Virus record (IMG/VR): IMGVR_UViG_3300046779_001442
Span: 32,001 to 96,000 of that record
Strand: one strand, 5' to 3'
Length of the DNA stretch: 64,000 bases
Origin: a virus
A program made the position numbers and the translations under genes. Shown here one piece after another: positions 9,857 to 52,610 of the stretch; position 1 is the first letter of the stretch; each line of letters starts with the position of its first letter. The notes under the pieces are model-generated. The model did no database searches. It saw nothing but the letters and a program-made list of their open reading frames with translations, and was not told the origin of the DNA.

Positions 9857-12800
9857 ATGGCTGATATACAGTCTAATATTCAAGTTAATATTGATACGTC
9901 TAGTGCTCTAGCGTCTATCAAGGCTCTTCAGGCACAGATATCAGCATTTCAAAAGGAGATGGCTAGCTCTTCAGCAGCCAATGCTCTTGCAGCCAAGAAT
10001 CTACAAAAAGGTTTAATTGATGACATAAATGCAACTGGAAAGTTTGCTGCAAGCATCAAAACTGTTACCTCAACAACAGACTATTTCACAAGGTCACTTG
10101 AGAAAAATAAGCTCTCGCTTGGAGAATATTTCCGTTATGGAATGGCTTCAAGCAAGAGCTTTTCTCGTATGTTTGAAAGTGAATTTAACACAATAAATAA
10201 AGTTGCTCGTGAGCGTGTTAAAGATCTTCAAACACAATACATATCATTAGGCAAGGATGCTTCTGGTGCCACAAAAGCTATTGCAATACGCCCACTAGCT
10301 CTTGATCTTGAGCATGTTGGGACTAAGGCACAAATAGCTGCACAAAGAACTCAGCTCTTTAATCAAATACTAAAACAAGGATCAACTAATCTTCTTAACT
10401 TCGGTAAGAATACTCAGTGGGCTGGTCGTCAGCTCATGGTTGGTTTCACAATTCCTCTTTCTATTTTTGGTGCAAAGGCTGCACAAGAATTTAAGAAGCT
10501 AGAAGAGCAATCAATTAGATTTAAGCGTGTATATGGCGATGCTATGACCACACCAGAAGAAGCTGACAAGATGATTGAGCAGCTTCGTACACTTGGTCTA
10601 GAGTTTACAAAATATGGTGTTGCTCTGGAAGCAACTATGCAATTGGCTGCAGATGCAGCAGCAATGGGTAAAACTGGGCAAGATCTGTTGGGTCAGGTTA
10701 GCCAAGCTAATATTCTGGGGGTACTTGGTCAGGTAAGCCAAGAGCAAGCACTAGAAACAACTATATCTCTTACTAATGCATTTGGCTACAGCACTGAGCA
10801 ACTAGCAGACAAAGTTAATTTCCTTAACGCAGTAGAAAACCAAACTGTAGTATCCATTGAAGACTTGACAACTGCAATTCCTAAAGCAGGTCCAGTTGTT
10901 CAGCAGCTTGGTGGAGACGTAGAAGATCTAGCATTCTTCCTTACAGCAATGAAGGAAGGTGGAATCAATGCATCAGAAGGTGCCAACGCTCTGAAGTCTG
11001 GTCTAGCATCCTTGATCAACCCAACAGAAAAGGCATCGAACATGCTTCTTGGTATGGGTATTAATATTAAAAATATTGTTGCTGAAAACAATAATGATGT
11101 TGCAGGAATTGTTGTTGACTTTGCTCAGGCTCTGGACTCACTTGATCCAACAACTAGAGCACAGGCAATCGAACAGCTATTTGGTAAGTTCCAGTTTTCA
11201 CGTCTATCAACATTATTTCAAAACGTAATTCAAGAAGGTACCCAGGCTTCCCGTGTACTAGAGTTGACCAATATGACAACTGCTCAGCTTGCAGCAATGT
11301 CAAGAAAAGAGTTAAGGAATGTAGAAGAGTCATCTCTATACAAGTTCCAAGCTGCCATTGAAAGATTTAATGCTGCATTAGCTCCAGTCGGAGAACAGTT
11401 TATGAAGATGGTCACACCTCTAATTGAATTTGGAACAAGAATACTAAACATGTTTAACAACATGTCTGACGGAGCAAAGGGATTTGTTACAGCAATTGTT
11501 GGTATTGTTGGCGGTATTGCCCCAATCTTTATTATGACATTTGGTCTTATTGCTAACGCTATTGCTAACGGTATGAAGGGGTTCTTATTTATCAAGAATG
11601 CTATTCAGGGTGCAAAGCAAGAAACAACTGACCTTGGACTACAAACTCAATATATGTCAACAGAGCAGCTAGAGGCTGCCACAGTTGCTGCATCTCTTGA
11701 CCAGGTACACTCTAAGCTAGTTCAGACATTCACATCTGAAGCAGGAGCAATTGATAAATTAAGAACTGCACTTGAAAGAGCAGCAGTTGCACAAGCAAGA
11801 TTTGGTGGAGTTCGAGTTGCTGGAAATGCTCCTAAGCCAAAGAACTTTGCAAATGGAGGAATGGTTGTTGCTGGTCCTGGAGGTCCAAAGGGAGACAAAA
11901 TTCCTGCAAATCTTTCTGATGGAGAAGTTGTTCTATCGGTAGCAACAGTAGAAGAAAATCCAGCAGTTGTTCAAGCACTTCTTTCTGGACAAAAGGTACA
12001 GATTCCTGGATATGCTGAAAGTGGCACTGCTGGAAAGTCTGCAATAAGAGAGTTCTATGCACCAACTGGAAATACTTATCAGGCTGCACACTTCTCTGGA
12101 CATACAGAAATGTCTGGTGCTCAGCTACAAGAAATGGCTGCTGGAACAAGACTTGCAGCTGGCGTAGAAAAACTATTTGCTAACCTTATGGCTAGGTTAG
12201 AAAAAGAGGCATTAGAGGCAGGGGCTGTATTCGATAAGGCAGCAGCTGAGCTAAGAATACTTAATGAAACATTCGACCTGTATGATAATCGTGTAGTTTC
12301 TCTTGATGCAGAGCTAAACAATATTTTGGGTAGAAGTGGTGGTGAAAGCGGTGGAACTGCTCCTGTAGCAAGAGTTCAATCTGCTTTGCAGTCTGCTGGT
12401 ACAGATGCACACATGCAGGCAGCATTAACAATGAGCACTCAGGGTGCAACTAGAGAACAACAAAATGCTGCAATAGAACAGCTAGATGCTGCAGTGCAGC
12501 AATCAATGCAAGATTTTATTGACGATCAGGTAAAACTTGCTACTGGTGTTTCAGATGTTTCTGATTTGACAAAGCAAGAATATGAAGAGGCTATTGCCAA
12601 CATAAAGATGTCTGGAGAAGATTTAGATAGAGTTATCCAGAGAGCATACGAAGCGGTATCTGAAAAGAATGACCAACTAAAGGCAGCATATGAAGAGATG
12701 TCTGAGATTAGTGGTTATGCTCTTGCTGGAGATCTAAATCCAAACAAAGATAAGTCAAGAAACCGAAAAGGATTTACTGGCACTGGAACCAAACTCTATA

Positions 12801-15800
12801 CGGACACAAGAGGTCAGGCATATGAAAATATGTCTCAGATCAATGCAGATCAGGGTAGAGATAACAAGTTTGTTGAGACACAGAAGAGAAAATTTGCTAG
12901 AGTTCTAGAGGATGCAATTTCTCAAATTGTTGAGGTTGATCCAGAAGCTTTCACTCAGGTTTTGCAAAATCCTGATGCACAGGCAAGACTAAGAGAGCTT
13001 TCTGCTATTGCAGAAAAGTATGGGATTAAGCTCACACAGACTGCAATGGCAGAACTACAGAGAGGCTTTGAGGTAGGTCTACAGAAACAGTTAGATATTC
13101 AGTCACCTTCAAAAGAAGCCGAAGTTCGTGGTGCTCAAACAGGTGAGGGGTACCTTGATGGAGCGGAATCAAAGATTGATGATGCAAAAGCAGTTGGAGA
13201 GCAGACTGGTGATGCACTAACGAGAGCAGCTGCATCTAGAGCTGCTACGTATGGAGACCTTGAGGCTACTCCAGCACTAAAGTCAGCACGTAGAAAATTT
13301 GGTTCAGTTGAAAACATTCCCCCAGAGGTGCTATCTACACTAACATCTGGCATGACATCTGCTGGGGTAGAGGCAGAGAAAGCTGCAATTAATATTGGTG
13401 CTGTTGCAAATAAAGCAATGGCAGTCTCTGGTGCACTAAGCTCTGTATCATTCTTGCTGCAAGGATTTGGAATAAATCTTGGGGGTATTGGCGATGTTGT
13501 CACTACACTAACTAACTCAATGTTTGCACTATCTATGGCAACCGCTGCAGCTGCAAGAAGCACAATGGTCATGAGTGCACTAAATCTTTCTGGACTTGCA
13601 AATATAGGTGGATTGTTAAAGGGCAAGGGACTCCTTGATGGCTTTAAAACTATATTTTCATCTATAAGAACTTTTGGTGGTGCCCTAACTGGACTATCTG
13701 GAATTGTGTTTAGATTTATTCCATATATTGGCTTAGCACTACTGGCATTTGAAGGGTTTAAGTTCCTTTCAAATCAGATTCAGATAAGTAATGAAAAGAT
13801 TACTGGTCTTGGAGATGTGGCAAAACTAACAGCAGAAAAGCTTTCAAAAATTGGAAATGCTTTTGGTTTTGACCCAGCAAAACCTACTGATTTTGGTTCA
13901 AGAATTGGCACGTCTGACTCTACTTCTGGAAGCAGCAAGTCACAAACTGGTAGAGAAAAGCTTTTGTCTGGTTACGAAGGCGAAACAATAGAAGACAAGT
14001 TTAGCAAATTTAAAGATGACTACCGTGCAGAAATTAATGGTCTAGAAAATGCAACAGCAGAGCAGGCCACAAGAGCTTTGTCTAGCACAGCTAGACAGAT
14101 GTATGCTTCTGGAGCAACACAAGAAGCTGTAGATGCAACAATTAAAGCTTTAATTGAAGCAACAGAAAATAATCCAGAGCTTCAAAAGGTTGATGCTGGC
14201 AAGATTATTGGAACAGTGTTTGACCCAACAAAGCCAGGATCACTTCAGGCAATTCAAGATGCAGCAGCTGCCTCTGCAGAGGCATATCAAAAAGCATATA
14301 ACCTGGGACTTGCAACCGATTTTGGATCATCGGTTGATCCAGAGTCATGGATGGCTGGGACATACGATCCAAGCAAAGTTACTCAGCAACAGTTGGATGC
14401 TGCAGGAGTTAAGGGCAACACTGTAACACCACTAAGTTCAGACGCTACTAAGGAGCAGTCTATTCTTGCATCTGAAACAGCTGCCTCTGCAGATGCACTA
14501 TTCCAAGCTTTTGAGGCATCATCTATTGGTGCACAAGAACTAATTGACAATGTTAATGGATTGATTGCTCCAATTGAGGGTCTTAGTGAAACAGCACAAG
14601 CAAGACTTGTTCCAATATTGGCAGAACAGCTTGGTCCAGAATTTCAAGAGCAGACAAAAGATATTAAGGACTATGCAGATGTTCTTTATATGGCTAAGTA
14701 TGTGATGGCTGGCGGTGTAATAACAGATGAGCAAGTTAATAAGATTAAAAAGGGTACATCTGCAACTTCATTGCTTAGCGGATCGTTTGGACAGCTAGCA
14801 TTTGAAACAGAAAATGCACGTAAGGCAGAGGAAAGAAGGCAAGAAGCTGCAGATAATGCTGCATATGTTAAGCAGCAAATTGTTAACGTCTCTGATCAGA
14901 TAAAGGCATACAACATTCTCAGAGATGCAGGATATGATTCTGCCACTGCTTTGTCACTTGTAAATGATGAAACTCTAAGGTCTGAAATTTTAGCTGCAGG
15001 TGCAGCAGATAAATTGGGCGAGTTTGGGGTAAAGCTTAAAGAGTATGCTGGCCTAGTGGCACAATGGAATAAGATCAGCAGCTCTGGCGGTGGCGGAAGT
15101 GGCAAAAAGACACCTCTTCAGGAAGCACTAGAGTCACTAAAGGAACAAAGAGGTAATATTCTAAATGCAGCAACAGCATATAGTAAACTAAGAAAGGCAA
15201 ATATTGATGTTTCAACTTCTTGGAAGTACGCAAATGATGCAACTGTCGCAGCTGGTCTAGCCTCAGCAAAAACAGCTAAGCAAGTTAAACAAATTGTTGC
15301 TGCCATTAAGGAGCTAGAAAAGGCAACAGCCAAGAATGCATGGGGCAACTTCTCAAAGCAAACAGCTGATGCCAAGATTGCATTGCAGAATCAATCCAAG
15401 ATGGCAACAATTCTTGGTAACGTTGGTGCGTCTGCTGAAGAAATTGACGCATTGATAAATGATGAAGGTCTTGCAGCAGGCTTTAAGGCTGGAACAGTAA
15501 CAGCAGCACAGCTAGAAGAAGCTCTCAAGAGAATTCGTGCAAATTCTGACATTGAGCTGAAAATTAAGATGACCACTCCAGAAGGAATGCAGTCAATATT
15601 TGACGAGGCTTACGGCAAGGTACAAGAAGCTTTCTCTGCAAAAGAAACACAAATTGAGCTTGACTTTAAGCTTGGAACTAATCTTAGCGGACAAAACAAA
15701 GATTTGGTCAACACTAAAGCTATTGATGAAACTATCAAGAATGCTGAAGAACAGATTGATGGTCTTAACTATAAAATTGATGATTACGAGGCTGGCGTTC

Positions 15801-21848: not shown

Positions 21849-22855
21849 TGGCAGAAAAACCAAAGGCATCACCAAAAGCTTTATTGCCAACACTTAAACC
21901 AGTTACAACTGGCGTACCAAAGTCTTTGCAAAAGCCAGCTCTGACCTTACAGCAACAGTCTGATAGATCTAGAACAGCATCACGAGCTGCATTTCAAGCT
22001 TCTCCAGCAAAGAAAGAAAGAAATAAAGCAACTCAAAGCGTAATAGCTGCAAATAAAAAAGTTGATCAACTAAAAGCTTCTGCTAATGCTCCAGGGCTAA
22101 CTGCTCAGCAAAAATCAGATAGGATGCGTACTCTTGGTAGGGCACAAAATCAACAGTCAAAAGCAAAGGCTAACCTTAACAAAATAACTGGATATAAGAA
22201 ACCAGTAAAAAAGAGTGATCCAGTCAACACCAAGCCAACAAAGCCAAAAACTACAAAACCAAAGACTACAAAACCAAAGACCACAAAACCAAAAACTACT
22301 AAACCACAAACTGGTAACAATTCTACACTGCCACAAACTACGTCCCCAGTTGATGCTACGGAAAATCCTGTAGTTTCTGCTACCCCAGAGTCTCCATCTC
22401 CAGGAGTTACTTCAGAAGCAGAAAGTGTAAAGACCTATAAGCCTGCTACTCCAGATTTGATTCAGTTACAGGAAGACGAATTTCCAGTAGAGATTATTAC
22501 AGACTTGTTGTTTGAGGATATTGGCGGTACAGAAATTTTAAATTTAGCAAGGCATGACCTTGTGAGTGGTATAGATATAAAATATCAGCAAATATCAAAT
22601 CTTTCCAAGATTGAGGCTGTGTATGGTGGAGCAAACTTGGTTGCACTACAAAACACATCTGAACAAGTGTTTAGTAAATATCCACTCAGAAGATATCAAT
22701 TTATACCAACAGTCACAGATGATCCATCTGGACTAAATAGCCATGTCTACCTTGATGCTGCTGGAGACTTGGTGATAGAGCTAATCAACATAGACAACTC
22801 ATACCAAATAGAGGTAGAGTTCCAGGCAGCAGACATTAATGATATAATATATTGA
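21848..22855 (+). CDS. Tail-module protein with basic, Thr/Pro-rich low-complexity N-terminus
   Basis: TKPKT repeats; globular acidic C-terminus. Confidence 0.65.
   Translation: MAEKPKASPKALLPTLKPVTTGVPKSLQKPALTLQQQSDRSRTASRAAFQASPAKKERNKATQSVIAANKKVDQLKASANAPGLTAQQKSDRMRTLGRAQNQQSKAKANLNKITGYKKPVKKSDPVNTKPTKPKTTKPKTTKPKTTKPKTTKPQTGNNSTLPQTTSPVDATENPVVSATPESPSPGVTSEAESVKTYKPATPDLIQLQEDEFPVEIITDLLFEDIGGTEILNLARHDLVSGIDIKYQQISNLSKIEAVYGGANLVALQNTSEQVFSKYPLRRYQFIPTVTDDPSGLNSHVYLDAAGDLVIELINIDNSYQIEVEFQAADINDIIY
22229..22310 (+). repeat. Degenerate 15-nt tandem repeat encoding (TKPKT)n
   Basis: acaaaaccaaagact-like units, about 5 copies. Confidence 0.85.
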
Positions 22856-22864
22856 GGTAAAAAC

Positions 22865-24241
22865 ATGATAACTAATAAAGGTCAACAGCTAATAACCAAG
22901 TATATGATTGGTCAGGCATCTTCATATGCTTCACATGTTGCAGTTGGATGTGGACCAATGCCATACAATGCTCAGTCATCTGTTACGCAAGCAGAAATTG
23001 CTACACAAAGACTTAAGCAGAACCTAGACTTTGAGATGTTTCGTGTACCAATTACTTCTCGTGGATATGTTACAGAGGAATCTGGATCTGCATCAATCAG
23101 CGGAGTAGCGGTGGCAAACAATGTTGTGACGTATACCACATCAACAAATTCTTTCTTGACTGGAGACCGTGTAACCGTATCTGGAGTAAATCCCTCACAA
23201 TTTAATATATCAGATGCGATTATTATTGACTCATCACCAACTAGTTTTTCTATTCAAGGGTCTCCGTCTGGTACCTATGTTTCTGGAGGAATTGCAAAAA
23301 CATATTATACAGACATAGTTTTGACTGCAGAGCTGCCAACTGAAGAAAGATATGAAATTACTGAAGTTGGAATTTTTTCTGCACAGTCTAACCCAGATGC
23401 AGGTTCTTATGATAGTAGAACTATATATTCGTTTTCTCAAAATGAAAACTGGCAGTATCACGGGGTAAACATTGAGCCAATTCCAGTAGTATATACACCG
23501 CTAGATCCAAATCAGGCTAACGTCCTTGAAGGAATATACACAGTAAATGGTGAGCAAAAAGACTGCAAGGCATTGCACACAAATGCTGACAATACATTGT
23601 TTGCAAATGAGAATAGAATTCTTAGATATGAGACATGTAGATATTTAAATAATATTGTTGCTTTGCGTGGCAATTTGTCTAATTTGTCTTATGATTCTGT
23701 CACAAAAAGAGTTTCATATAACTCTGGAGATCACATACACCTAAACAATGTTAAATTAAATTTTGACAGAAACTCTCCTTCAGACGAGATCAAGCTTGCA
23801 TTTTCTGTTATTAATAAAAGAGGAAGTATTTCAGAAAACCCATCTGAAGTAAATCTTATTATAGAATTTTCAAATGCAGACTCTAACGCTACACAATCTG
23901 CAAAGCTAGAAGTACATCTAAATTCATCAGATTACAATTTTTCTAACAATAGATATTTTGTAGTTTCTAAAAAAATTAGTGAGTTGATCACATCTCAGTA
24001 TTTTTCATGGGGGCAGGTAACAACTATTAAGGTGTTTGCCTCAGCAAAAGATACAGATGGTGCAGTGTCAGACCTGTTCTATATCTGTCTAGATGCACTT
24101 AGACTAGAAAATACTCAAACAATAAATCCATTATATGGAATGTCTGGATACTCTGTTGTTAAAACAACAAACGGAACTACTGTGAAAAAGCTAGAAAATA
24201 CTACAAACTACATAGAGTTTAGATTTGGTGTTGATATATAG
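22865..24241 (+). CDS. Minor tail / baseplate protein
   Basis: MITNKG...VAVGCG and ITEVGIF motifs typical of tail fibre/baseplate N-termini. Confidence 0.65.
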   Translation: MITNKGQQLITKYMIGQASSYASHVAVGCGPMPYNAQSSVTQAEIATQRLKQNLDFEMFRVPITSRGYVTEESGSASISGVAVANNVVTYTTSTNSFLTGDRVTVSGVNPSQFNISDAIIIDSSPTSFSIQGSPSGTYVSGGIAKTYYTDIVLTAELPTEERYEITEVGIFSAQSNPDAGSYDSRTIYSFSQNENWQYHGVNIEPIPVVYTPLDPNQANVLEGIYTVNGEQKDCKALHTNADNTLFANENRILRYETCRYLNNIVALRGNLSNLSYDSVTKRVSYNSGDHIHLNNVKLNFDRNSPSDEIKLAFSVINKRGSISENPSEVNLIIEFSNADSNATQSAKLEVHLNSSDYNFSNNRYFVVSKKISELITSQYFSWGQVTTIKVFASAKDTDGAVSDLFYICLDALRLENTQTINPLYGMSGYSVVKTTNGTTVKKLENTTNYIEFRFGVDI

Positions 24242-29114: not shown

Positions 29115-32100
29115 ATGAGTTACGCTGGTCTACATGTCCACACACACTACTCGCTATTTGACGGAATTGCAACACCACAGGAATATGTGGACCGTGCCGT
29201 AGAGCTGGGCATGCCAGCAATCGCAATCACTGACCACGGATCTCTATCTGGTCACCGTGAAATGTATCGTGCTGCTAAAGAAGCAGGCATCAAGCCAATC
29301 CTTGGTATCGAAGGGTATATTACAAAAGACCGTTTTGACCACACAGATAAGAAGGAAAAGAATGACCCTCTTGATCTAAACTATAACCACCTAATCATTA
29401 TTGCAAAGAATGCTAAGGGTCTACAGAACCTAAATAAGCTTAATGAGATTGCTTGGACAGAAGGATTTTACAAGAAGCCACGTATTGACTGGGACATCCT
29501 TGAAGAGTATAAGGATGGACTTATCATTACTTCTGGATGCCTATCTGGTGTTCTTGCTAAGGCCATTGAGGCTAATGAATTTGCCTATGCAAAAGAGCAC
29601 ATTCAAAAGTGCAAGACTATTTTCGGTGATGACTATTACATTGAGGTAATGCCACATAACCCACCAGAGATTAATAAGGCTCTTCTAGATCTTGCAGATG
29701 AATTTGGTGTAAAGCCTGTTGTAACTCCAGACTGTCACCACTCTGACCCATCTCAGAAAGAGATTCAGGAGCTTAAGCTAATCCTTAACTCATACTCAAA
29801 TAAGGTTGAGAAGGGTGCTACATATGAAGGCTCAAAGAAGTATGACAATCTAATGGACCGTCTAGATTATCTTTATGGTGCAGATCGTCAAATGTCATTT
29901 AACAAGTTTGAAATTCATCTGCTATCTGATGAAGAAATGCACAATGCCATGAAGGCCCAAGGTATTGACCGTGAAGATATGTATGACACTACTCGTGAAA
30001 TTGTTGACAAGGTAGAAGACTACAAGATTAAGGATCACCAAGATCTACTTCCAGTTCAGTACCAGAATCCAAACAAAGAGCTTAAAGAGCTTGCTCTTGC
30101 TGGTCTAAAAGAACGTGGAATTGAAACACAAGAATACTTAGCACGTCTAGATGAAGAGCTAGAAGTGATTGAAGCAAAGAACTTTGGACCATACTTCCTT
30201 GTTGTACGCTCAATGATTTCCTGGGCTAAAAAAGAAGGAATCATGGTTGGTCCAGGTCGTGGTTCTGCAGCAGGCTCACTGCTCTGCTATGCTCTAGGAA
30301 TTACAGACATTGATCCAATTCAGCATGGACTATTGTTCTTCCGATTTATCAACCCAGAGCGTAATGACTTCCCAGATATTGATACTGATATTCAGGACTC
30401 ACGTCGTGAAGAAGTAAAGGATTACCTAGTACGTCAATATAAGCATGTTGCGTCTATTGCAACATTTTTACAGTTCCGTGGCAAAGGTATGGTTCGTGAT
30501 ATTGCACGTACACTCAACGTACCACTTGCAGATGTAAATAAGGTTCTAAAGGTTGTTGACGATTGGGACGACTACTGTTCTTCAAAGCAGTCAGCATGGT
30601 TCCGTGAAAAGTATCCTGAGATTGAAACTTACGGAGATCTTCTACGAGGTCGTATTCGTGGTACTGGTATTCACGCTGCAGGTGTTGTAACATCTAAGCA
30701 GCCTATCTTTAAGTTCGCACCACTAGAAACTCGTACCTCACCAGGAAACAAAGAGCGTATCCCAGTTGTGGCGGTAGACATGGAAGAAGCAGAGCGTATT
30801 GGTCTAATTAAGATTGATGCACTTGGACTCAAGACATTGTCTGTTCTACGAGACACTCTAGACATTATTGAAGAACGTCATGACAAGAAGATTGACTTAT
30901 TGTCAATTGATATGGATGATGCAAATGTATATAGAATGCTATCTGATGGATATACAAAGGGTGTGTTTCAGTGTGAAGCAACACCATATACAAATCTTTT
31001 GGTAAAGATGGGTGTAAAGAACCTAGATGAGCTTGCTGCTTCTAATGCTCTAGTTCGTCCAGGTGCTGCAAATACAATTGGTAAGGACTACATTGCACGT
31101 AAGCAGGGTAGACAGAATATTGATTATAAGCACCAAGTTATGAAGTCTTTTACTGCAGAGACCTATGGCTGCATCTTGTACCAGGAACAGGTTATGCAGG
31201 CTTGTACAGAGCTTGGTGGCATGACAATGGCTGAGGCCGATAAGGTTCGTAAGATCATTGGTAAGAAGAAAGATGCTAAAGAGTTTGACCAATTCAAGGA
31301 TAAGTTTGTTGATGGGGCTAGTAAGTTCATTTCTCCTAACGCTGCTATGGATCTATGGCACGATTTTGAAGCACACGCAGGCTATTCTTTCAACAAGTCC
31401 CATGCCGTTGCCTACTCAACACTTTCATACTGGACAGCGTGGCTAAAGTATCACTATCCACTAGAGTTTATGTACTCAATACTTAAAAACGAAAAAGACA
31501 AGGATGCACGTACTGAATATCTAATTGAGACAAAGCGTATGGGAATTCCTATCAAGCTTCCACACGTTAATGATTCAGATGCTGACTTTAAGATTGAGGG
31601 CAAAGGCATAAGGTTTGGTCTAACTGGAATTAAGTATATTTCTGACAATATTGCATCTAAGTATATGGCTGCTCGTCCATTTAATAGCTATAAAGAACTT
31701 GAAGAGTTTACGTTCGGCAAGGGCAATGGAGTAAATAGTCGTGCACTGCAAGCAATGAGAGTTGTTGGTGCTGCAACATTCCACGATCAACCACGAAACG
31801 ACCAAGAAATTCGTGAGAACTTATATGAGTACTTAAACCTTCCAGAGTTTAATATCTCTGTTCCTCAACACTATCACGCATTTGTTAGTGATGTAGAAGA
31901 GTTCGAGGAAAAGGGATCATTTATTCTAATGGGGATGGCAAAAGAGATTAAGCGTGGCAAGGGTTGGTCACGTGTAGAGATTCTAGATAAAACAGGAAGC
32001 GTAGGTATCTTTGATGATGAGCAGTCTGCAATCGAAACTGGAAAGACATATCTTATTTTGGCTAGCGATAATCGCATTACTGAGGCCATCCAGATTGATG

Positions 32101-45878: not shown

Positions 45879-48104
45879 TTGAAGAAGTCTTGGGCTATAA
45901 TTGCCCTACTTTTACTCACAGGAGTGATGACACTCTGGCCACTTTCTGCATATGCTGATGAAGTGGTAAATAGTGCTACCGTAACTGTTGTTCAGCAGGA
46001 TGAGCTGACTACTGTGGTTGTTGCAATAGAAACTGCCAACTCAGACCTGGTTGTTGTTTCTCAAAATATGGATGCTGCGGTACAGCAATCAGGATCTGTT
46101 TCAGTGACAGAAACAATTGCCAATGCTATAACTACAGCAACTAATGCCATATCTGTTGCCTCAGATGCCGTAGATCAAGCTGAGGTAGCTGTTGAGCAAG
46201 CAAATATAAAGATTTCTATAGCCGATGGAGCTACAGCAACTGTAGAGCAGGCTGAGGCAAACCTAAGTGTAGCACAGCAAGATTTGGTAAATGCAACAGC
46301 AGACCTAGCAGAGGCAACTGCAAATGTTGATGCTCAAGAGGTTATAGTAGCTACAGACATTCAGAATGTACAGGCTGCACAAGCTGCAGTGGATCAAGCT
46401 ATTGGTAGTGCCCCTGGCCTTAAGGCTGAGGTATATAATATGGTTGGCTACAATAATGCACCACCACTGCCAGAAACAATTGGCAAGACTCCAGTGGTTA
46501 CAACAACAGTAACTCAGATTAGTTTTGACTGGGGTGGGGGTACAGCATTCAATGCATTGTCCGAAGACTTTATAGTTAAGTTTAGTGGTAACATTACCTC
46601 TCAATATACTGGAACTATTGGGCTATACGCCCCTGCTGATGATGGAGTTATCCTTAAGCTAGATGGACAAACAGTTATTAATGACTGGTATGACAAGGGT
46701 GGCGGTGGAACTGCTGTTACATATAATGTGCAGGCAGGAGACCCAATTCCGCTAACACTATACTATTATGAAAATGGTGGTGGAGCACATGTTAACCTAA
46801 TGTGGACTCAAGGTGGTAGTTGGTCTATTGTTCCAGCAAGTGCATTCACCACTACAACAGGAACTGCTACACAAGAACAATTGAGTACACTTTCAAGTGC
46901 ACAAACACAATTGCAATCTGATCAAACAGCACTAGCTGGGTTACAGCAAATTGAAACTAGCATGCAAAATAATTTTAACTCATCCTCTGACACTCTTGCA
47001 ACAGCAGTGCTTGCAGTAGTTGAAGCAGAGGAGTCGGAGACAGCAGCAATACAGGATGCTAATCAAGCAATTCAAACTGCAGTAGAGTTATCTGCAACTG
47101 CTACACAGGCTGTTGAGGATGCAGGGCAGTCCGTATCTAATTTGTCTACAGTTATTGCTCAGCAATCTGCAGCAGAAGAAGCTGCTAGACAGGCAGCTAT
47201 TGCTGCTGAGCAAGCAAGACTAGCAGCAGAAGCTGCAGCAAGAGCAGAGGCGGAAAGATTAAGGCTAGAGGCAGAGGCTAAAGCTGCTGCAGAAGCAGCT
47301 GCAAAAGCAGAAGCAGAAAGATTAGCTGCTGAAGCAAAAGCTGCAGAAGAAGAAAGATTGAGACTTGAAGCAGAAGCCAAGGCAGCTGAAGAAGAAAGAC
47401 TGAGGCTTGAGGAAGAGGCAAGACTAGCTGCAGAAGCAGAAGCCAAGGCCAAGGCAGAAGCAGAAGCACTTGCCAAAGCTGAAGAAGAGGCAAGGATAGA
47501 AGCAGAAAGATTAGCTGCAGAAGAAGCTGCTAAAGCTGAGGCAGAAAGATTAGAAGCAGAAGCACTTGCAGAGGCAGAAAGATTGGCAGAAGAAAAAGCA
47601 AGGTTAGAGGCAGAACAAAAGGCTGCAGAAGAAGCTGCAAAGATTGAAAACGTTGTAAAAGATGCTGAGGCAGACGGGGTAGTTACAGAAGAAGAGAAAG
47701 AGGCTATTGTCTCATCTCTAATAGAAGAGCTAAAGCCAGGAGAAGCATTGTCTAGCGAACAGATACAGGCAGCAGGAATATCCTACTCTGATCTACCACC
47801 TTCAACACCAGTTGATGTTAGAACAGATGAGAGTGGAAATGCTGTTGTAATTACTGCTGAGGTAGCAGCAGACATTGAATTGATTTCTGACCCAGGAGCA
47901 TTCGTAGGAGAATTGCTTTCTGATCCAGGAGCAGCCATTGCTGCCCTTGGTTCTATTGGTGCAGATATGAGCCCTGCTGAGAGAGAAGAGGCTCAACACA
48001 TGGTAGTCGCAACAGTAGTTGCTGCAGGTGCAGCGATGAACGCAGTTTCTGTTGCATCATCAGGTGGTACTACAGGTGGGTCTAACAATACAAGGAGATC
48101 ATAA
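45879..48104 (+). CDS. Secreted/surface coiled-coil protein with PA14 domain
   Basis: Signal peptide; FDWGGG, ADDGV.L..DG, YYENGGGA; Ala/Glu/Arg repeats. Confidence 0.8.
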   Translation: MKKSWAIIALLLLTGVMTLWPLSAYADEVVNSATVTVVQQDELTTVVVAIETANSDLVVVSQNMDAAVQQSGSVSVTETIANAITTATNAISVASDAVDQAEVAVEQANIKISIADGATATVEQAEANLSVAQQDLVNATADLAEATANVDAQEVIVATDIQNVQAAQAAVDQAIGSAPGLKAEVYNMVGYNNAPPLPETIGKTPVVTTTVTQISFDWGGGTAFNALSEDFIVKFSGNITSQYTGTIGLYAPADDGVILKLDGQTVINDWYDKGGGGTAVTYNVQAGDPIPLTLYYYENGGGAHVNLMWTQGGSWSIVPASAFTTTTGTATQEQLSTLSSAQTQLQSDQTALAGLQQIETSMQNNFNSSSDTLATAVLAVVEAEESETAAIQDANQAIQTAVELSATATQAVEDAGQSVSNLSTVIAQQSAAEEAARQAAIAAEQARLAAEAAARAEAERLRLEAEAKAAAEAAAKAEAERLAAEAKAAEEERLRLEAEAKAAEEERLRLEEEARLAAEAEAKAKAEAEALAKAEEEARIEAERLAAEEAAKAEAERLEAEALAEAERLAEEKARLEAEQKAAEEAAKIENVVKDAEADGVVTEEEKEAIVSSLIEELKPGEALSSEQIQAAGISYSDLPPSTPVDVRTDESGNAVVITAEVAADIELISDPGAFVGELLSDPGAAIAALGSIGADMSPAEREEAQHMVVATVVAAGAAMNAVSVASSGGTTGGSNNTRRS
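47160..47645 (+). repeat. EAERL/AEAKAA coding repeats
   Basis: Repeated gcagaagaagaaaga / gcagaaagattag units. Confidence 0.8.
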
Positions 48105-48647: not shown

Positions 48648-49172
48648 ATGACATGTATAGTTGCAGCACGTCACGAAGATAAAATTTATATGGCAGGTGA
48701 CCGTGGTGCATCTGAAAACAATTTAATTATGTCTCTTACAAGTCCAAAAGTTTGGAAGCATGGAGAATATGTTTTTGGATATTGTGGTTCAATGGATGGC
48801 GATAGGATGAAGTATAATTTTAAGCCACCTGCACCAAAGGGCGATGACGTAGATAAGTTTATGTATACTGATTTTCTAATTGCTCTACGTGTATTCTATG
48901 AAAATTGGTGGGTAGATGTATCAAATGACTCAGACTTTGGATTGCTCATTGGTGTTCGTGGAAAGATATATGAACATAATGCTGTTGATATGTCACTAAA
49001 CCAATACATGCATGACTATATAGCAATGGGGTCTGGATCAGAATATGCATATGGTTCTATGTATTCTACAGAAAATTTAAAAGATACACGCAAGCGTGTC
49101 ATGAAAGCTGTTAGTGCTGCTATTAAATTCTCAACTTCTTGCCAAGGTCCAGTTGACATTGTCAGCACCTAG
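48648..49172 (+). CDS. HslV / proteasome-like Ntn hydrolase
   Basis: MTCIVA (Thr2 nucleophile), AGD, AMGSGS. Confidence 0.8.
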   Translation: MTCIVAARHEDKIYMAGDRGASENNLIMSLTSPKVWKHGEYVFGYCGSMDGDRMKYNFKPPAPKGDDVDKFMYTDFLIALRVFYENWWVDVSNDSDFGLLIGVRGKIYEHNAVDMSLNQYMHDYIAMGSGSEYAYGSMYSTENLKDTRKRVMKAVSAAIKFSTSCQGPVDIVST

Positions 49173-49398: not shown

Positions 49399-50505
49399 AT
49401 GAAAAAATTTGCAACTGTTTTAACAACAGCATTTTTGCTAACTGGATTCGTTAATGCGTCTGAAGCTGCTGTATTCCAGCCTTGCTCTGCAAAAAAAGTA
49501 AATGTAGTAAGCAATAATAAGATATGCAAAAAGGTTGGAATTTTTTATAGGTGGGTTAGTCTACCAACAAAAAGCAAGGCTCCAATTGCCACACCCAAGC
49601 CAAGTCCAACTATAACGGCACAGCCAATAACTGCAACAGACTATTCAGTGCTGCTGACATCATTTGACGATGTTGATAAGTATCTGTTTGTTAATGACTA
49701 CAGGCTACCAACTAATAATATAAAATTTGGTCCAAGCCTTGATCCAAAAATTGTGTCTAATGGTACTGAGGCCTTTGTCTCTATTGCAAGTGTGTTCTCT
49801 ACTTTTTATTCTCCATCATATTATTATGCAATAGTTACATCAGAAAAGGACCGTGAGTGGGCAGCATCACCATCAATCAACAAGATTGACTCTAGGTTTA
49901 CTGGACTATATGGCAATACCTGTGAAAACGGTAATAGCGGAAATGAGTGGAGTTCAATTTCATGCACCTGGTCTGATAAAACAGAGTGGTACAGAATGGA
50001 ATTGCTTGCACATGAATATACTCATAGCGTAATCTATAGCACTGGAGGAACAAAGACTGGTGCAGTTAGCAACTACCAAAGGGCATTTGACATTCCTTCT
50101 TGGCTCAATGAGGGTGCTGCAACATACTATGGATGGTGGCTAGGATCTATAAAAGATAAAAACATTTCTGCACATATAAAGGGCCACCTTAACGGATTTG
50201 CATGCAGCGTTCCAGGCTATTCAGATTTACCAAACCCAGAAAAGCTAGCATCTGAGATGAAGCAGATAGAAACTGGTGCAGGGCATTCATTTAAACAATA
50301 TGGGTACGGTGCTATTGCTGTAGCAGAATTAGTATCAAAGTATGGAGGGCACAAAGCAATGCTTGACTTCTATACACAGATGCGTTATACTAGTAATTGG
50401 AAAGATGCATTTGAAAAGTCATTTGGAGTTACTCCAGATAAGTTTTATGTTGAACAATATAAAGATTTTATTAAAATGCTTCCAGACTTGACATGTAAAC
50501 GATAA
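49399..50505 (+). CDS. Secreted gluzincin-type metallopeptidase
   Basis: Signal peptide; HEYTH and WLNEG.A.Y. Confidence 0.8.
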   Translation: MKKFATVLTTAFLLTGFVNASEAAVFQPCSAKKVNVVSNNKICKKVGIFYRWVSLPTKSKAPIATPKPSPTITAQPITATDYSVLLTSFDDVDKYLFVNDYRLPTNNIKFGPSLDPKIVSNGTEAFVSIASVFSTFYSPSYYYAIVTSEKDREWAASPSINKIDSRFTGLYGNTCENGNSGNEWSSISCTWSDKTEWYRMELLAHEYTHSVIYSTGGTKTGAVSNYQRAFDIPSWLNEGAATYYGWWLGSIKDKNISAHIKGHLNGFACSVPGYSDLPNPEKLASEMKQIETGAGHSFKQYGYGAIAVAELVSKYGGHKAMLDFYTQMRYTSNWKDAFEKSFGVTPDKFYVEQYKDFIKMLPDLTCKR

Positions 50506-50516
50506 CGTGTTATAAT
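50488..50516 (+). promoter_or_regulatory. Consensus promoter of tRNA array
   Basis: TTGACA-17-TATAAT with extended TG. Confidence 0.85.
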
Positions 50517-50533
50517 AAAATACAACTTAATAA

Positions 50534-50606
50534 TGCCCTATAGCTCAGCTGGCAGAGCGTCCGACTGTTAATCGGCAGGTCCCTGGTTCGATCCCAGGTG
50601 GGGCAG
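50534..50606 (+). tRNA. tRNA-Asn(GTT)
   Basis: Cloverleaf, loop ctGTTaa. Confidence 0.92.
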
Positions 50607-50610
50607 CAAA

Positions 50611-50790
50611 CACATTAACGACGGTTGATGTGGAGTATGACCGAATAATTCCCAGAGTCAAATGGGGGGAATAAGGTACTATCGGATCTTAGCGGATCGT
50701 CTTAGCGGACAAACGGTAGGTGTGCTCAAAGCGGTACTTGACGAGCCGTATTGACTAGGCACTGGTGGTAAAATGCAATCCACCTACTCA
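50611..50790 (+). ncRNA. Candidate structured ncRNA 1
   Basis: Multi-branch pairing found by hand, twin TTAGCG-loop hairpins, no ORF. Confidence 0.6.
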
Positions 50791-50794
50791 CTTT

Positions 50795-50865
50795 GCGAAT
50801 GTTGCATAATGGTAGTGCCTCTGCCTTCCAAGCAGAAGGTGAGAGTTCGATTCTCTCTATTCGCT
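50795..50865 (+). tRNA. tRNA-Gly(TCC)
   Basis: Cloverleaf, loop ctTCCaa. Confidence 0.92.
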
Positions 50866-50866
50866 C

Positions 50867-51035
50867 TATAGGCTAATCACCTATACGTGTACAAGTGTAC
50901 GTAAAAATTCAACACTTGAGAATGTCCAGGCATTGGTTTAATCTGGCGTGTAGGCACCTCACGATATAGGTTCGGAGCTAGTCACTCGTCTTAGGAAACG
51001 ACTCAGGGATATAGATCTGATTAATCTGATATCCC
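50867..51035 (+). ncRNA. Candidate structured ncRNA 2
   Basis: Several 7-11 bp helices, no ORF. Confidence 0.5.
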
Positions 51036-51039
51036 ACTT

Positions 51040-51113
51040 GGTCTCATAGTTCAGTTGGTTAGAACGCCACCCTGTCACGGTGGAGGTCAGGGGTTCAAGT
51101 CCCCTTGGGATCG
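51040..51113 (+). tRNA. tRNA-Asp(GTC)
   Basis: Cloverleaf, loop ctGTCac. Confidence 0.92.
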
Positions 51114-51120
51114 CTCAGAA

Positions 51121-51279
51121 GCATAAGTCTGAACAACTTATGTGGAGATTGTTATACCGAAACCTGCACTGTGGACGCATCATACGAAGGGGTTCAGCCC
51201 GATGGAGATTGCTCTGCTAACCCACTAGGTATAACAGCCAATGGCAAACTTCCTTAACCAAAAGGTGAGCACGATTGGC
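51121..51279 (+). ncRNA. Candidate structured ncRNA 3
   Basis: 10-bp closing helix with nested stems, no ORF. Confidence 0.55.
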
Positions 51280-51283
51280 AAAT

Positions 51284-51433: not shown

Positions 51434-51465
51434 CTATAGCATAAAAAGTATGCTATACTATAACT

Positions 51466-51561
51466 ATGGAGCTAACTATGAAGTATTCAAACCAGCAATC
51501 GCATGTGCGATTTAGTCTGGCGTACTCTTGGCATTTAGCCAGTCTCCAGCCGAGTATCTAA
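51466..51561 (+). CDS. Putative 31-aa leader peptide MELTMKYSNQQSHVRFSLAYSWHLASLQPSI
   Basis: ATG 6 nt after TG-C-TATACT (51451-51459); second in-frame ATG at 51478. Confidence 0.45.
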   Translation: MELTMKYSNQQSHVRFSLAYSWHLASLQPSI

Positions 51562-51648
51562 TCTAACTCGCTTAAACAAATAGATTATCTAATAAAAATC
51601 CAAACAATCACAATTTAATACAATACCAAACAGTTAGTTCCATAACAT

Positions 51649-51796: not shown

Positions 51797-51825
51797 TTGA
51801 CAACTAAATATAGAAAAGATATAAT
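51797..51825 (+). promoter_or_regulatory. Consensus promoter for the distal tRNA block
   Basis: TTGACA-17-TATAAT. Confidence 0.85.
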
Positions 51826-52520: not shown

Positions 52521-52610
52521 GGAAGGACAATCCGATTGGCGACGGAACCTGTCTTGAAAACAGTTGAGGTGTTAAAGCCCTTGGGAGTTCGACTCTCCCT
52601 CCTTCCGCCA
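52521..52610 (+). tRNA. tRNA-Ser(TGA)
   Basis: Loop ctTGAaa, long variable arm, G73, CCA encoded. Confidence 0.9.

Follow-up and report, generated by a model that had tools for sequence, protein, structure and literature searches.

Weinberg et al. 2010 (PMC2864571) regarded the manA motif as a candidate riboswitch, since its conserved fold is complex and it is mostly found in 5' UTRs. The alignment published at that time already included examples flanked by tRNAs, and the accompanying drawing marked a long-range pairing as 'pseudoknot?'. Five manA RNAs have now been solved by cryo-EM (Ren et al. 2026, bioRxiv 10.64898/2026.07.01.735769); their assemblies are an icosahedral cage of 60 subunits, decamers and an octamer, all built from pentamers except for the octamer, which is built from tetramers. 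According to that preprint, subunits touch through a contact named I1, which joins L5 with L7' and is common to the four-way-junction constructs, and through I2, which is L3-L8' in the Photobacterium type or L8-L9' in the cyanophage type; further inter-subunit contacts are L1-L1' and, where P6 helices are long, one of the GNRA type. The four-way junction P4-P5-P6-P7 is present in most members of the family and in four of the five solved RNAs, the exception being 6FAB. The assemblies were obtained in vitro, and no cellular role was claimed for them. Only in 2026 was an RNA that had been an orphan riboswitch candidate since 2010 shown to form, in vitro, cages made of RNA alone.

The ROOL and GOLLD RNAs, which are often phage-borne and near tRNA genes, offer another comparison. 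They too are natural RNAs that form protein-free symmetric multimers, including nanocages (summarised in 10.64898/2026.07.01.735769), but they are several hundred nucleotides long and unrelated to manA in sequence, their assemblies are dihedral rather than pentamer-based, and neither has an Rfam match at the locus described below. With respect to placement only, that locus also resembles the genes for RNAC and RNAD of phage T4, small non-tRNA RNAs that come from the phage's tRNA gene cluster and whose biological role is unknown (PMC3014915).

The window analysed here is a stretch of 64,000 nucleotides (positions 32,001 to 96,000) from the IMG/VR virus record IMGVR_UViG_3300046779_001442, which is 110.9 kb long and rated complete. 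The virus has a G+C content of about 40% and encodes a portal, a protease, a capsid protein, a DnaB-like helicase, a DNA polymerase and a ribonucleotide reductase; the closest relatives of its capsid protein, at about 43% identity, come from large, tRNA-rich siphoviruses of Streptomyces and Rhodococcus. Near the start of an array of 22 tRNA genes (called by ARAGORN) lies a manA RNA, and the features of this region, in window positions, are the following:

50488-50516, + strand: consensus sigma-70 promoter, TTGACA, 17 nt, TATAAT, with a TG (hexamers 12/12)
50534-50606, + strand: tRNA-Asn(GUU), from Rfam, ARAGORN and acceptor pairing read off the sequence
50607-50794, + strand: whole manA-family RNA, bounded by two tRNAs, from Rfam RF01745 and our own model R1
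50611-50632, + strand: P1 hairpin, cacattaac 50611-50619 with gttgatgtg 50624-50632, 9 bp including one G-U
50633-50637 and 50785-50789, + strand: closing helix (P2 in the preprint's numbering), gagta with tactc
50640-50677, + strand: P3a/P3b arm, AC 50640-50641 with GU 50676-50677, internal loop GAAUAA...UAAG, stem UUCCC/GGGAA
50657-50661, + strand: 5' partner of the long-range pairing, GUCAA in L3
50679-50719, + strand: three-way junction domain, stem ctatcg 50679-50684 with cggtag 50714-50719, two hairpins inside
50685-50698, + strand: first twin-loop hairpin, GAUC-UUAGCG-GAUC, at the P5/L5 position
50699-50710, + strand: second twin-loop hairpin, GUC-UUAGCG-GAC, at the P7/L7 position
50722-50762, + strand: P8 arm, GUGCU/GGCAC, with inner hairpin GCGGU...GCCGU and a 3' internal strand
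50751-50755, + strand: 3' partner of the long-range pairing, UUGAC, on the 3' side of the P8 internal loop
50764-50784, + strand: P9 hairpin, ggtgg 50764-50768 with ccacc 50780-50784, conserved loop UAAAAUGCAAU
50795-50865, + strand: tRNA-Gly(UCC), from Rfam and ARAGORN

The original prediction had described the spacer as a structured RNA and suggested a comparison with Rfam's manA, which proved to be the right family: model RF01745 matches 50613-50794 over its full length (model positions 1-192 of 192), at 65.8 bits against a gathering score of 55.2 and with an E-value of 1.7e-14 over the window. No tRNA, tmRNA or YrlA model matched 50607-50794 even at E<=5, and ARAGORN called nothing there. 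With the motif of 2010 (PMC2864571) the RNA shares P1 with its GACG loop, the closing helix, the P3 module GAAUAA/UAAGG that is common to the whole family, the P8 arm and the P9 hairpin with GGUA...AAUCC, and it has a complementarity between L3 and the P8 arm (GUCAA/UUGAC) at the site that was marked 'pseudoknot?'. It departs from the motif at the junction, which is three-way instead of four-way: only two hairpins lie inside the P4 stem and P6 is missing, and the Rfam alignment passes the junction by local ends, with 28 model positions replaced by 8 residues. In that 6FAB, an accepted manA member, likewise has no four-way junction, the missing junction does not exclude membership. Both junction hairpins, moreover, carry UUAGCG, and the complementarity of L5 with L7 seen in the cyanophage type (GUGGUG with UUACCA) is absent; the long-range pairing is variable and covarying, as against the near-invariant GGCAU/AUGCC of cyanophage manA; and the RNA directly adjoins tRNA-Asn on one side and tRNA-Gly on the other instead of lying in a 5' UTR. 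The segment 50607-50794 is thus a manA-family RNA of a little-described sub-group with two identical loops, a sub-group set apart by its three-way junction, identical L5 and L7, variable interface pairing and tRNA-embedded placement.

Every helix of the original prediction was found when read directly from the sequence, and the minimum-free-energy fold of 50607-50794 recovers all nested helices at -59.6 kcal/mol (z-score -3.40; none of 200 shuffles folds as well). It is conservation, however, and not the single sequence, that establishes the fold as more than chance. In an alignment of 47 sub-group sequences, 90.9% of pair cells hold standard pairs, a share that drops to 37-44% once partners are displaced by 1-3 columns; none of 500 shuffles attained the covariation score of 0.746 (compared with about 0.10), and 46 of 50 pairs show changes on both sides, although the nested helices were fitted by the covariance model and their pair counts therefore favour it. 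In the same alignment, compensatory changes occur at all nine pairs of P1 (helices 1-3), whose loop L1, the GACG tetraloop at 50620-50623, is kept in most relatives, and at all five pairs of the closing helix, which is 99.1% paired. The first twin-loop stem (helix 10) is 99.5% paired with compensatory changes at four of four pairs, the second (helix 11) is 95% paired, and P9 (helix 13) is 100% paired with GGUAA...AAUCC invariant. The P3 stem is formed by ttccc (50649-50653) and gggaa (50667-50671) and encloses L3, a loop of 13 nt at 50654-50666. The Rfam match, the fold and the covariation together uphold the view that this is a structured RNA.

Running a covariance model had been proposed as a check, and it both found relatives and revealed strong covariation of the stems. 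The loci found by pattern scans of IMG/VR fell into two sets, one of the cyanophage type and one like the window, and the model R1 was built from 40 sequences of the latter. In the sub-group R1 returned about 60 matches with scores of 79-180 bits, which represent 52 distinct RNAs in uncultured viruses, and it also found one in Rhodococcus phage Francesca; the window has one match only (50609-50791, 177.8 bits). Cyanophage-type manA RNAs score about 20-69 bits with R1, which indicates common descent with the sub-group. Rfam largely misses these RNAs, since its cut-off was reached by 3 of the 16 sub-group loci tested. Among deposited phages, blastn found only Rhodococcus phage Francesca, whose RNA (72.9 bits with Rfam) lies flush between tRNA-Met and tRNA-Lys. 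Streptomyces phage Sham has a related copy with other loop sequences (Rfam 73.8 bits), flush between tRNA-Leu and tRNA-Pro. With Francesca carrying an RNA of this sub-group and Sham one of a related variant, both in culture, the role of manA in a phage comes within reach of experiment.

Beyond phages, a loose DNA pattern picked up 120 stretches in cellular genomes, of which 80 are listed as loci; these were dismissed as chance matches, R1 matching none of 82 loci (L238-L319), a null that is no proof of absence from cells. A blastn search of plasmids with the RNA found nothing, blastn being too insensitive for this RNA for the result to inform; a published paper reports the manA motif on a Bifidobacterium megaplasmid, together with a tmRNA and tRNAs. 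Two viral loci hold longer manA-like RNAs of about 216-221 nt (L189, 8109-8329; L206, 2159-2374; 29-32 bits with R1), each with three UUAGCG (TTAGCG in the DNA) or near-alike loop sequences instead of two. In a further locus, L167 of a related phage, the spacer that follows tRNA-Asp is 94% identical to that of the window (10697-11132, compared with window positions 50609-51283). The manA copy just upstream of it is far more diverged, with a different P1, different stems and the interface duplex GCCAGCAA/UUGCUGGC, a pattern that points to an exchange of manA cassettes, or to rapid compensatory evolution of the RNA, in arrays that are otherwise similar.

The identity of the two junction loops had been taken as a sign of a bivalent protein-binding site or sponge. 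Among 51 relatives, the first loop is N-UAGC-G in all and U-UAGC-G in 43, and the second is U-UAGC-G in 50; one of these loops was prescribed by the search pattern, so that only the constancy of the other is an unbiased observation. The stems vary freely while the loops hold (GAUC, GACC, GACA, GGGA and GCUC all occur), and this combination of constant loops with covarying stems shows that the loops are under selection. Laid antiparallel upon each other, two UUAGCG loops can form G-C and C-G only, flanked by A.G, so that their mutual contact is a weak one of two G-C pairs. A contact through this palindromic GC core would need the same sequence in both loops and would thereby explain their identity, and we offer it as a conjecture. 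So small a contact has a precedent in a retroviral RNA, whose GACG tetraloops form a kissing interaction of only two G-C pairs.

If the loops instead bound protein, the RNA might serve as a decoy or sponge, each molecule capturing an RNA-binding protein of the host or the phage, as two copies or as a dimer; a tRNA-directed defence nuclease or a tRNA-modifying enzyme would be examples. An invariant loop on variable stems is what a sequence-specific contact of this kind would produce, the longer RNAs in L189 and L206 have three such loops, and the RNA is made together with tRNAs and has relatives with tmRNA genes beside them. Other manA lineages, however, keep the fold and carry different loops at the positions of the twin loops (UGGU/ACCA in cyanophages, CUAAUCA/UGAAG in Sham), and the corresponding positions in the solved RNAs touch RNA, not protein, according to our own mapping onto those structures (10.64898/2026.07.01.735769); nor was a TROVE/Ro protein found in this phage. 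We consider the sponge unlikely. Bivalency of the twin loops is plausible, and their partner would more likely be another copy of the RNA than a protein.

Several other candidate partners were examined. A codon-like match of UUAGC to the anticodon loop of tRNA-Ser(GCU) was rejected, as the corresponding cyanophage loops share ACCA and not U-A-N-C, and as the flanking tRNAs are never Ser-specific. The P9 loop was rejected as a partner of UAGCG, its middle letters varying freely among near-identical relatives. The tRNA island of Sham (L358) encodes a Ro-like RNA-binding protein and a tmRNA (13601-15235 and 22777-23074) besides its manA-like RNA at 11161-11319; the Ro/Y-RNA link that this protein raised was dropped, the phage of the window having no TROVE domain.

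The loop agtcaa at 50656-50661 is the exact reverse complement of ttgact at 50751-50756, from which the original prediction had derived a possible pseudoknot. Because this helix was left out of the covariance model, it provides an independent test: it is 81.6% paired across the 47 sequences, with compensatory changes at five of six pairs. Thirty distinct complementary duplexes occur in 42 non-redundant sequences, and their mean duplex energy is -10.1 kcal/mol when the strands come from the same sequence versus -5.3 kcal/mol when they come from different ones; a run of at least six contiguous pairs is found in 83% of the former and 25% of the latter. The long-range pairing therefore holds for a core of five pairs, GUCAA/UUGAC, which covaries and is under selection, but the outermost pair, A50656-U50756, is not conserved (8 A-U, 25 unpaired) and drops out. 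In the cyanophage type the same positions are a near-invariant GGCAU/AUGCC, which explains why only 'pseudoknot?' was possible in 2010; a pairing that was queried then is now very strongly supported by natural compensatory changes. In the lineage of the window, UUGA (50751-50754) can alternatively pair with UCAA (50726-50729) inside P8, and this offers a second state.

Loop names were mapped by sequence and helix order onto the preprint's constructs, which places L1 at the GACG loop, L5 and L7 of the cyanophage-type constructs at GUGGUG and UUACCA, and L3 of the Photobacterium construct at UCAGC, complementary to GCUGA in L8. The solved RNAs (10.64898/2026.07.01.735769) and the one in the window have a core fold in common, with counterparts here of L1, L3, L5, L7, L8 and L9, and L3 again has a partner, here strongly covarying, in the P8 arm. 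Unlike in those constructs, L5 and L7 are identical here and not complementary, and the partner of L3 is the 3' side of the P8 internal loop and not a terminal loop. Because manA RNAs make their contacts at the same topological positions, the long-range pairing may join neighbouring copies instead of folding a single one, and it would then be the equivalent of the inter-subunit contact I2. The covariation fits an intramolecular pseudoknot, as drawn with a question mark in 2010, equally well: in a homo-oligomer both strands lie on one gene, such that covariation cannot separate pairing in cis from pairing in trans. We give the two roughly even odds.

The molecule is a compact junction from which project P1, P3 with L3, the three-way junction with its two UUAGCG hairpins, P8 and P9, and its most likely molecular behaviour, by homology, is self-assembly into rings or cages. 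In such an assembly the twin loops would stand where L5 and L7 make the I1 contact, with mutual Watson-Crick pairing possible only through the palindromic GC core. This second interface is altered relative to the known structures, its two loops now being identical, and a different contact geometry is predicted. Assembly is carried over by homology only, given that UAGCG loops occur in none of the five solved constructs, that four of these have a four-way junction, and that P6 is missing here. Taken as a whole, we put the probability at about 0.7 that the RNA is a member of manA that is released from a tRNA precursor and, as its homologues do, assembles with itself.

A more elaborate version of this reading would make the twin-UAGCG sub-group a distinct manA assembly type, held together by two sticky loops with palindromic cores and by GACG, in which the lineage-specific L3-P8 pairing acts as an 'address' that admits identical copies only, and in which the resulting RNA shell or lattice acts on the tRNA pool. 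We regard this as rather a long shot; if true, a shell made in fixed proportion with the tRNAs, all from a single precursor, might hold or shield tRNAs or tRNA-directed host factors while the phage infects its host.

The placement of the RNA among its relatives suggests how it is made. Among the 52 distinct sub-group members, a same-strand tRNA lies at most 10 nt upstream in 26, at most 12 nt downstream in 17 and on both sides in 14, and a tRNA lies within 3 kb in 43; of 68 other, mostly cyanophage-type, manA RNAs, three are tRNA-flush. Members that have no upstream tRNA have a TTGACA/TATAAT-like promoter set so that the RNA begins at the same AACA position, and many members that have no flanking tRNA end in a separate terminator hairpin. 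In this large sub-group, mostly missed by Rfam, the RNA behaves as its own gene, either in phage tRNA arrays or with a promoter and terminator of its own, and this speaks for a free RNA and against a gene switch.

In the window, the promoter at 50488-50516 is situated 18 nt 5' of tRNA-Asn and heads the first transcription unit of the array. Transcription from it would yield a tRNA precursor that runs from tRNA-Asn through the manA RNA to tRNA-Gly and onward. The gene for tRNA-Asn encodes no CCA, its discriminator G50606 being followed by CAAAC, and in tRNA maturation a precursor must be cut after the discriminator before CCA can be added; this cut would create the 5' end of the manA RNA. At the other side, the closing helix ends at 50789 and the 5' end of tRNA-Gly is 5 nt further on. 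The 5' end of a downstream tRNA sets the site at which RNase P cuts, and a cut at 50794/50795 would create the 3' end, releasing a free RNA of about 188 nt that would exert no control over a neighbouring gene. No ORF of at least 40 aa overlaps the spacer, and the next such ORF downstream starts beyond 51080; a scan for terminator-like sites on the + strand found none within or 3' of the manA RNA. Since neither an ORF nor a terminator follows, a free RNA excised along with the tRNAs is more likely than a riboswitch. A mimicry of tRNA towards RNase P by the stacked closing helix and P9 was also considered and dropped, as the 3' tail is not consistently ACCA.

Rfam nevertheless classes manA as a cis-regulator, and on that reading the RNA would respond to a metabolite and regulate the tRNAs that follow, either by way of read-through or by way of their processing. 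The rating of 2010 (PMC2864571) drew on the complex fold and the habit of lying in 5' UTRs, a terminator hairpin follows some sub-group members, and the closing helix stops just 5 nt short of tRNA-Gly. The same closeness, combined with the lack of a + strand terminator and of an ORF after the RNA, leaves no expression platform, and 14 distinct relatives are tRNA-flush on both sides. Where relatives have terminators, these are hairpins of their own outside the conserved fold, no ligand of manA is known after 16 years, and the solved structures are oligomers for which a ligand pocket was not reported (10.64898/2026.07.01.735769). A riboswitch is, in our judgement, improbable at this locus.

The position between two tRNAs, in an array that has other long spacers, could also mean that the RNA is a passive structured spacer, which aids processing or stabilises the tRNA precursor and has no role of its own. 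Yet gaps of only 0-5 nt separate most tRNAs of the array, which do not need a spacer of this kind, stand-alone copies have their own promoter and terminator and no flush tRNA, and the fold persists in very divergent sequences and in phages whose hosts are unrelated. We hold this explanation to be very improbable.

Metatranscriptomes provide a weak hint of an abundant short RNA, with which their contig depth fits. Two freshwater runs from different studies gave contigs at 50623-50741 (depth 1678) and 50626-50741 (depth 2115), which differ from the window at 1-3 letters, and contigs on the flanking tRNAs had depths of at most 62; such contigs show neither ends nor strand and cannot rank abundance, DNA carry-over is possible, and the parts they leave uncovered are uninformative. 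Illumina adapter sequence directly adjoins position 50626 in X2 and position 50624 in X5, two of the runs; for X3 none is listed. The contigs contained no joints indicating a circular form.

Some relatives have unusual neighbours. In six loci (L132, L138, L144, L146, L183 and L203), a T-arm with the 3' strand of an acceptor stem (e.g., GGTTCAAGTCCTAGCAATCCACA) directly precedes manA; these sequences, about 60 nt 5' of the manA copies, are not called as tRNAs by ARAGORN and may be unusual or decayed tRNAs. Genes for tmRNA, some of them permuted, adjoin or lie near sub-group manA copies in L126 (3298-3623, with a gap to manA of only about 8 nt), L138 (3393-3690), L164 (10357-10658), L134 (6175-6257) and L217 (1194-1276).

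The array itself is probably composed of two transcription units. Within it, at 51797-51825 and just 5' of tRNA-Met (51832), is another perfect sigma-70 promoter (TTGACA, 17 nt, TATAAT), and every long spacer falls in the first unit. The three other long spacers (50867-51039, 51115-51283 and 51435-51648) were matched neither by Rfam at E<=5 nor by R1 at E<=0.001, which rules them out as further manA copies. The third and fourth long spacers of the array are 94-99% identical in the close relatives L147, L221, L172 and L167, and of the second, only a part recurs, in L140. Upstream of the array are genes for a 741-aa PA14-domain protein (45879-48104) and an HslV/proteasome-like peptidase (48648-49172), and a 370-aa protein without a family match ends at the array promoter. 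At 52521-52610, Rfam narrowly calls a tRNA-Sec (47.8 bits against a cut-off of 47) and ARAGORN a tRNA-Ser(UGA); this gene is most likely an ordinary tRNA-Ser with a long arm.
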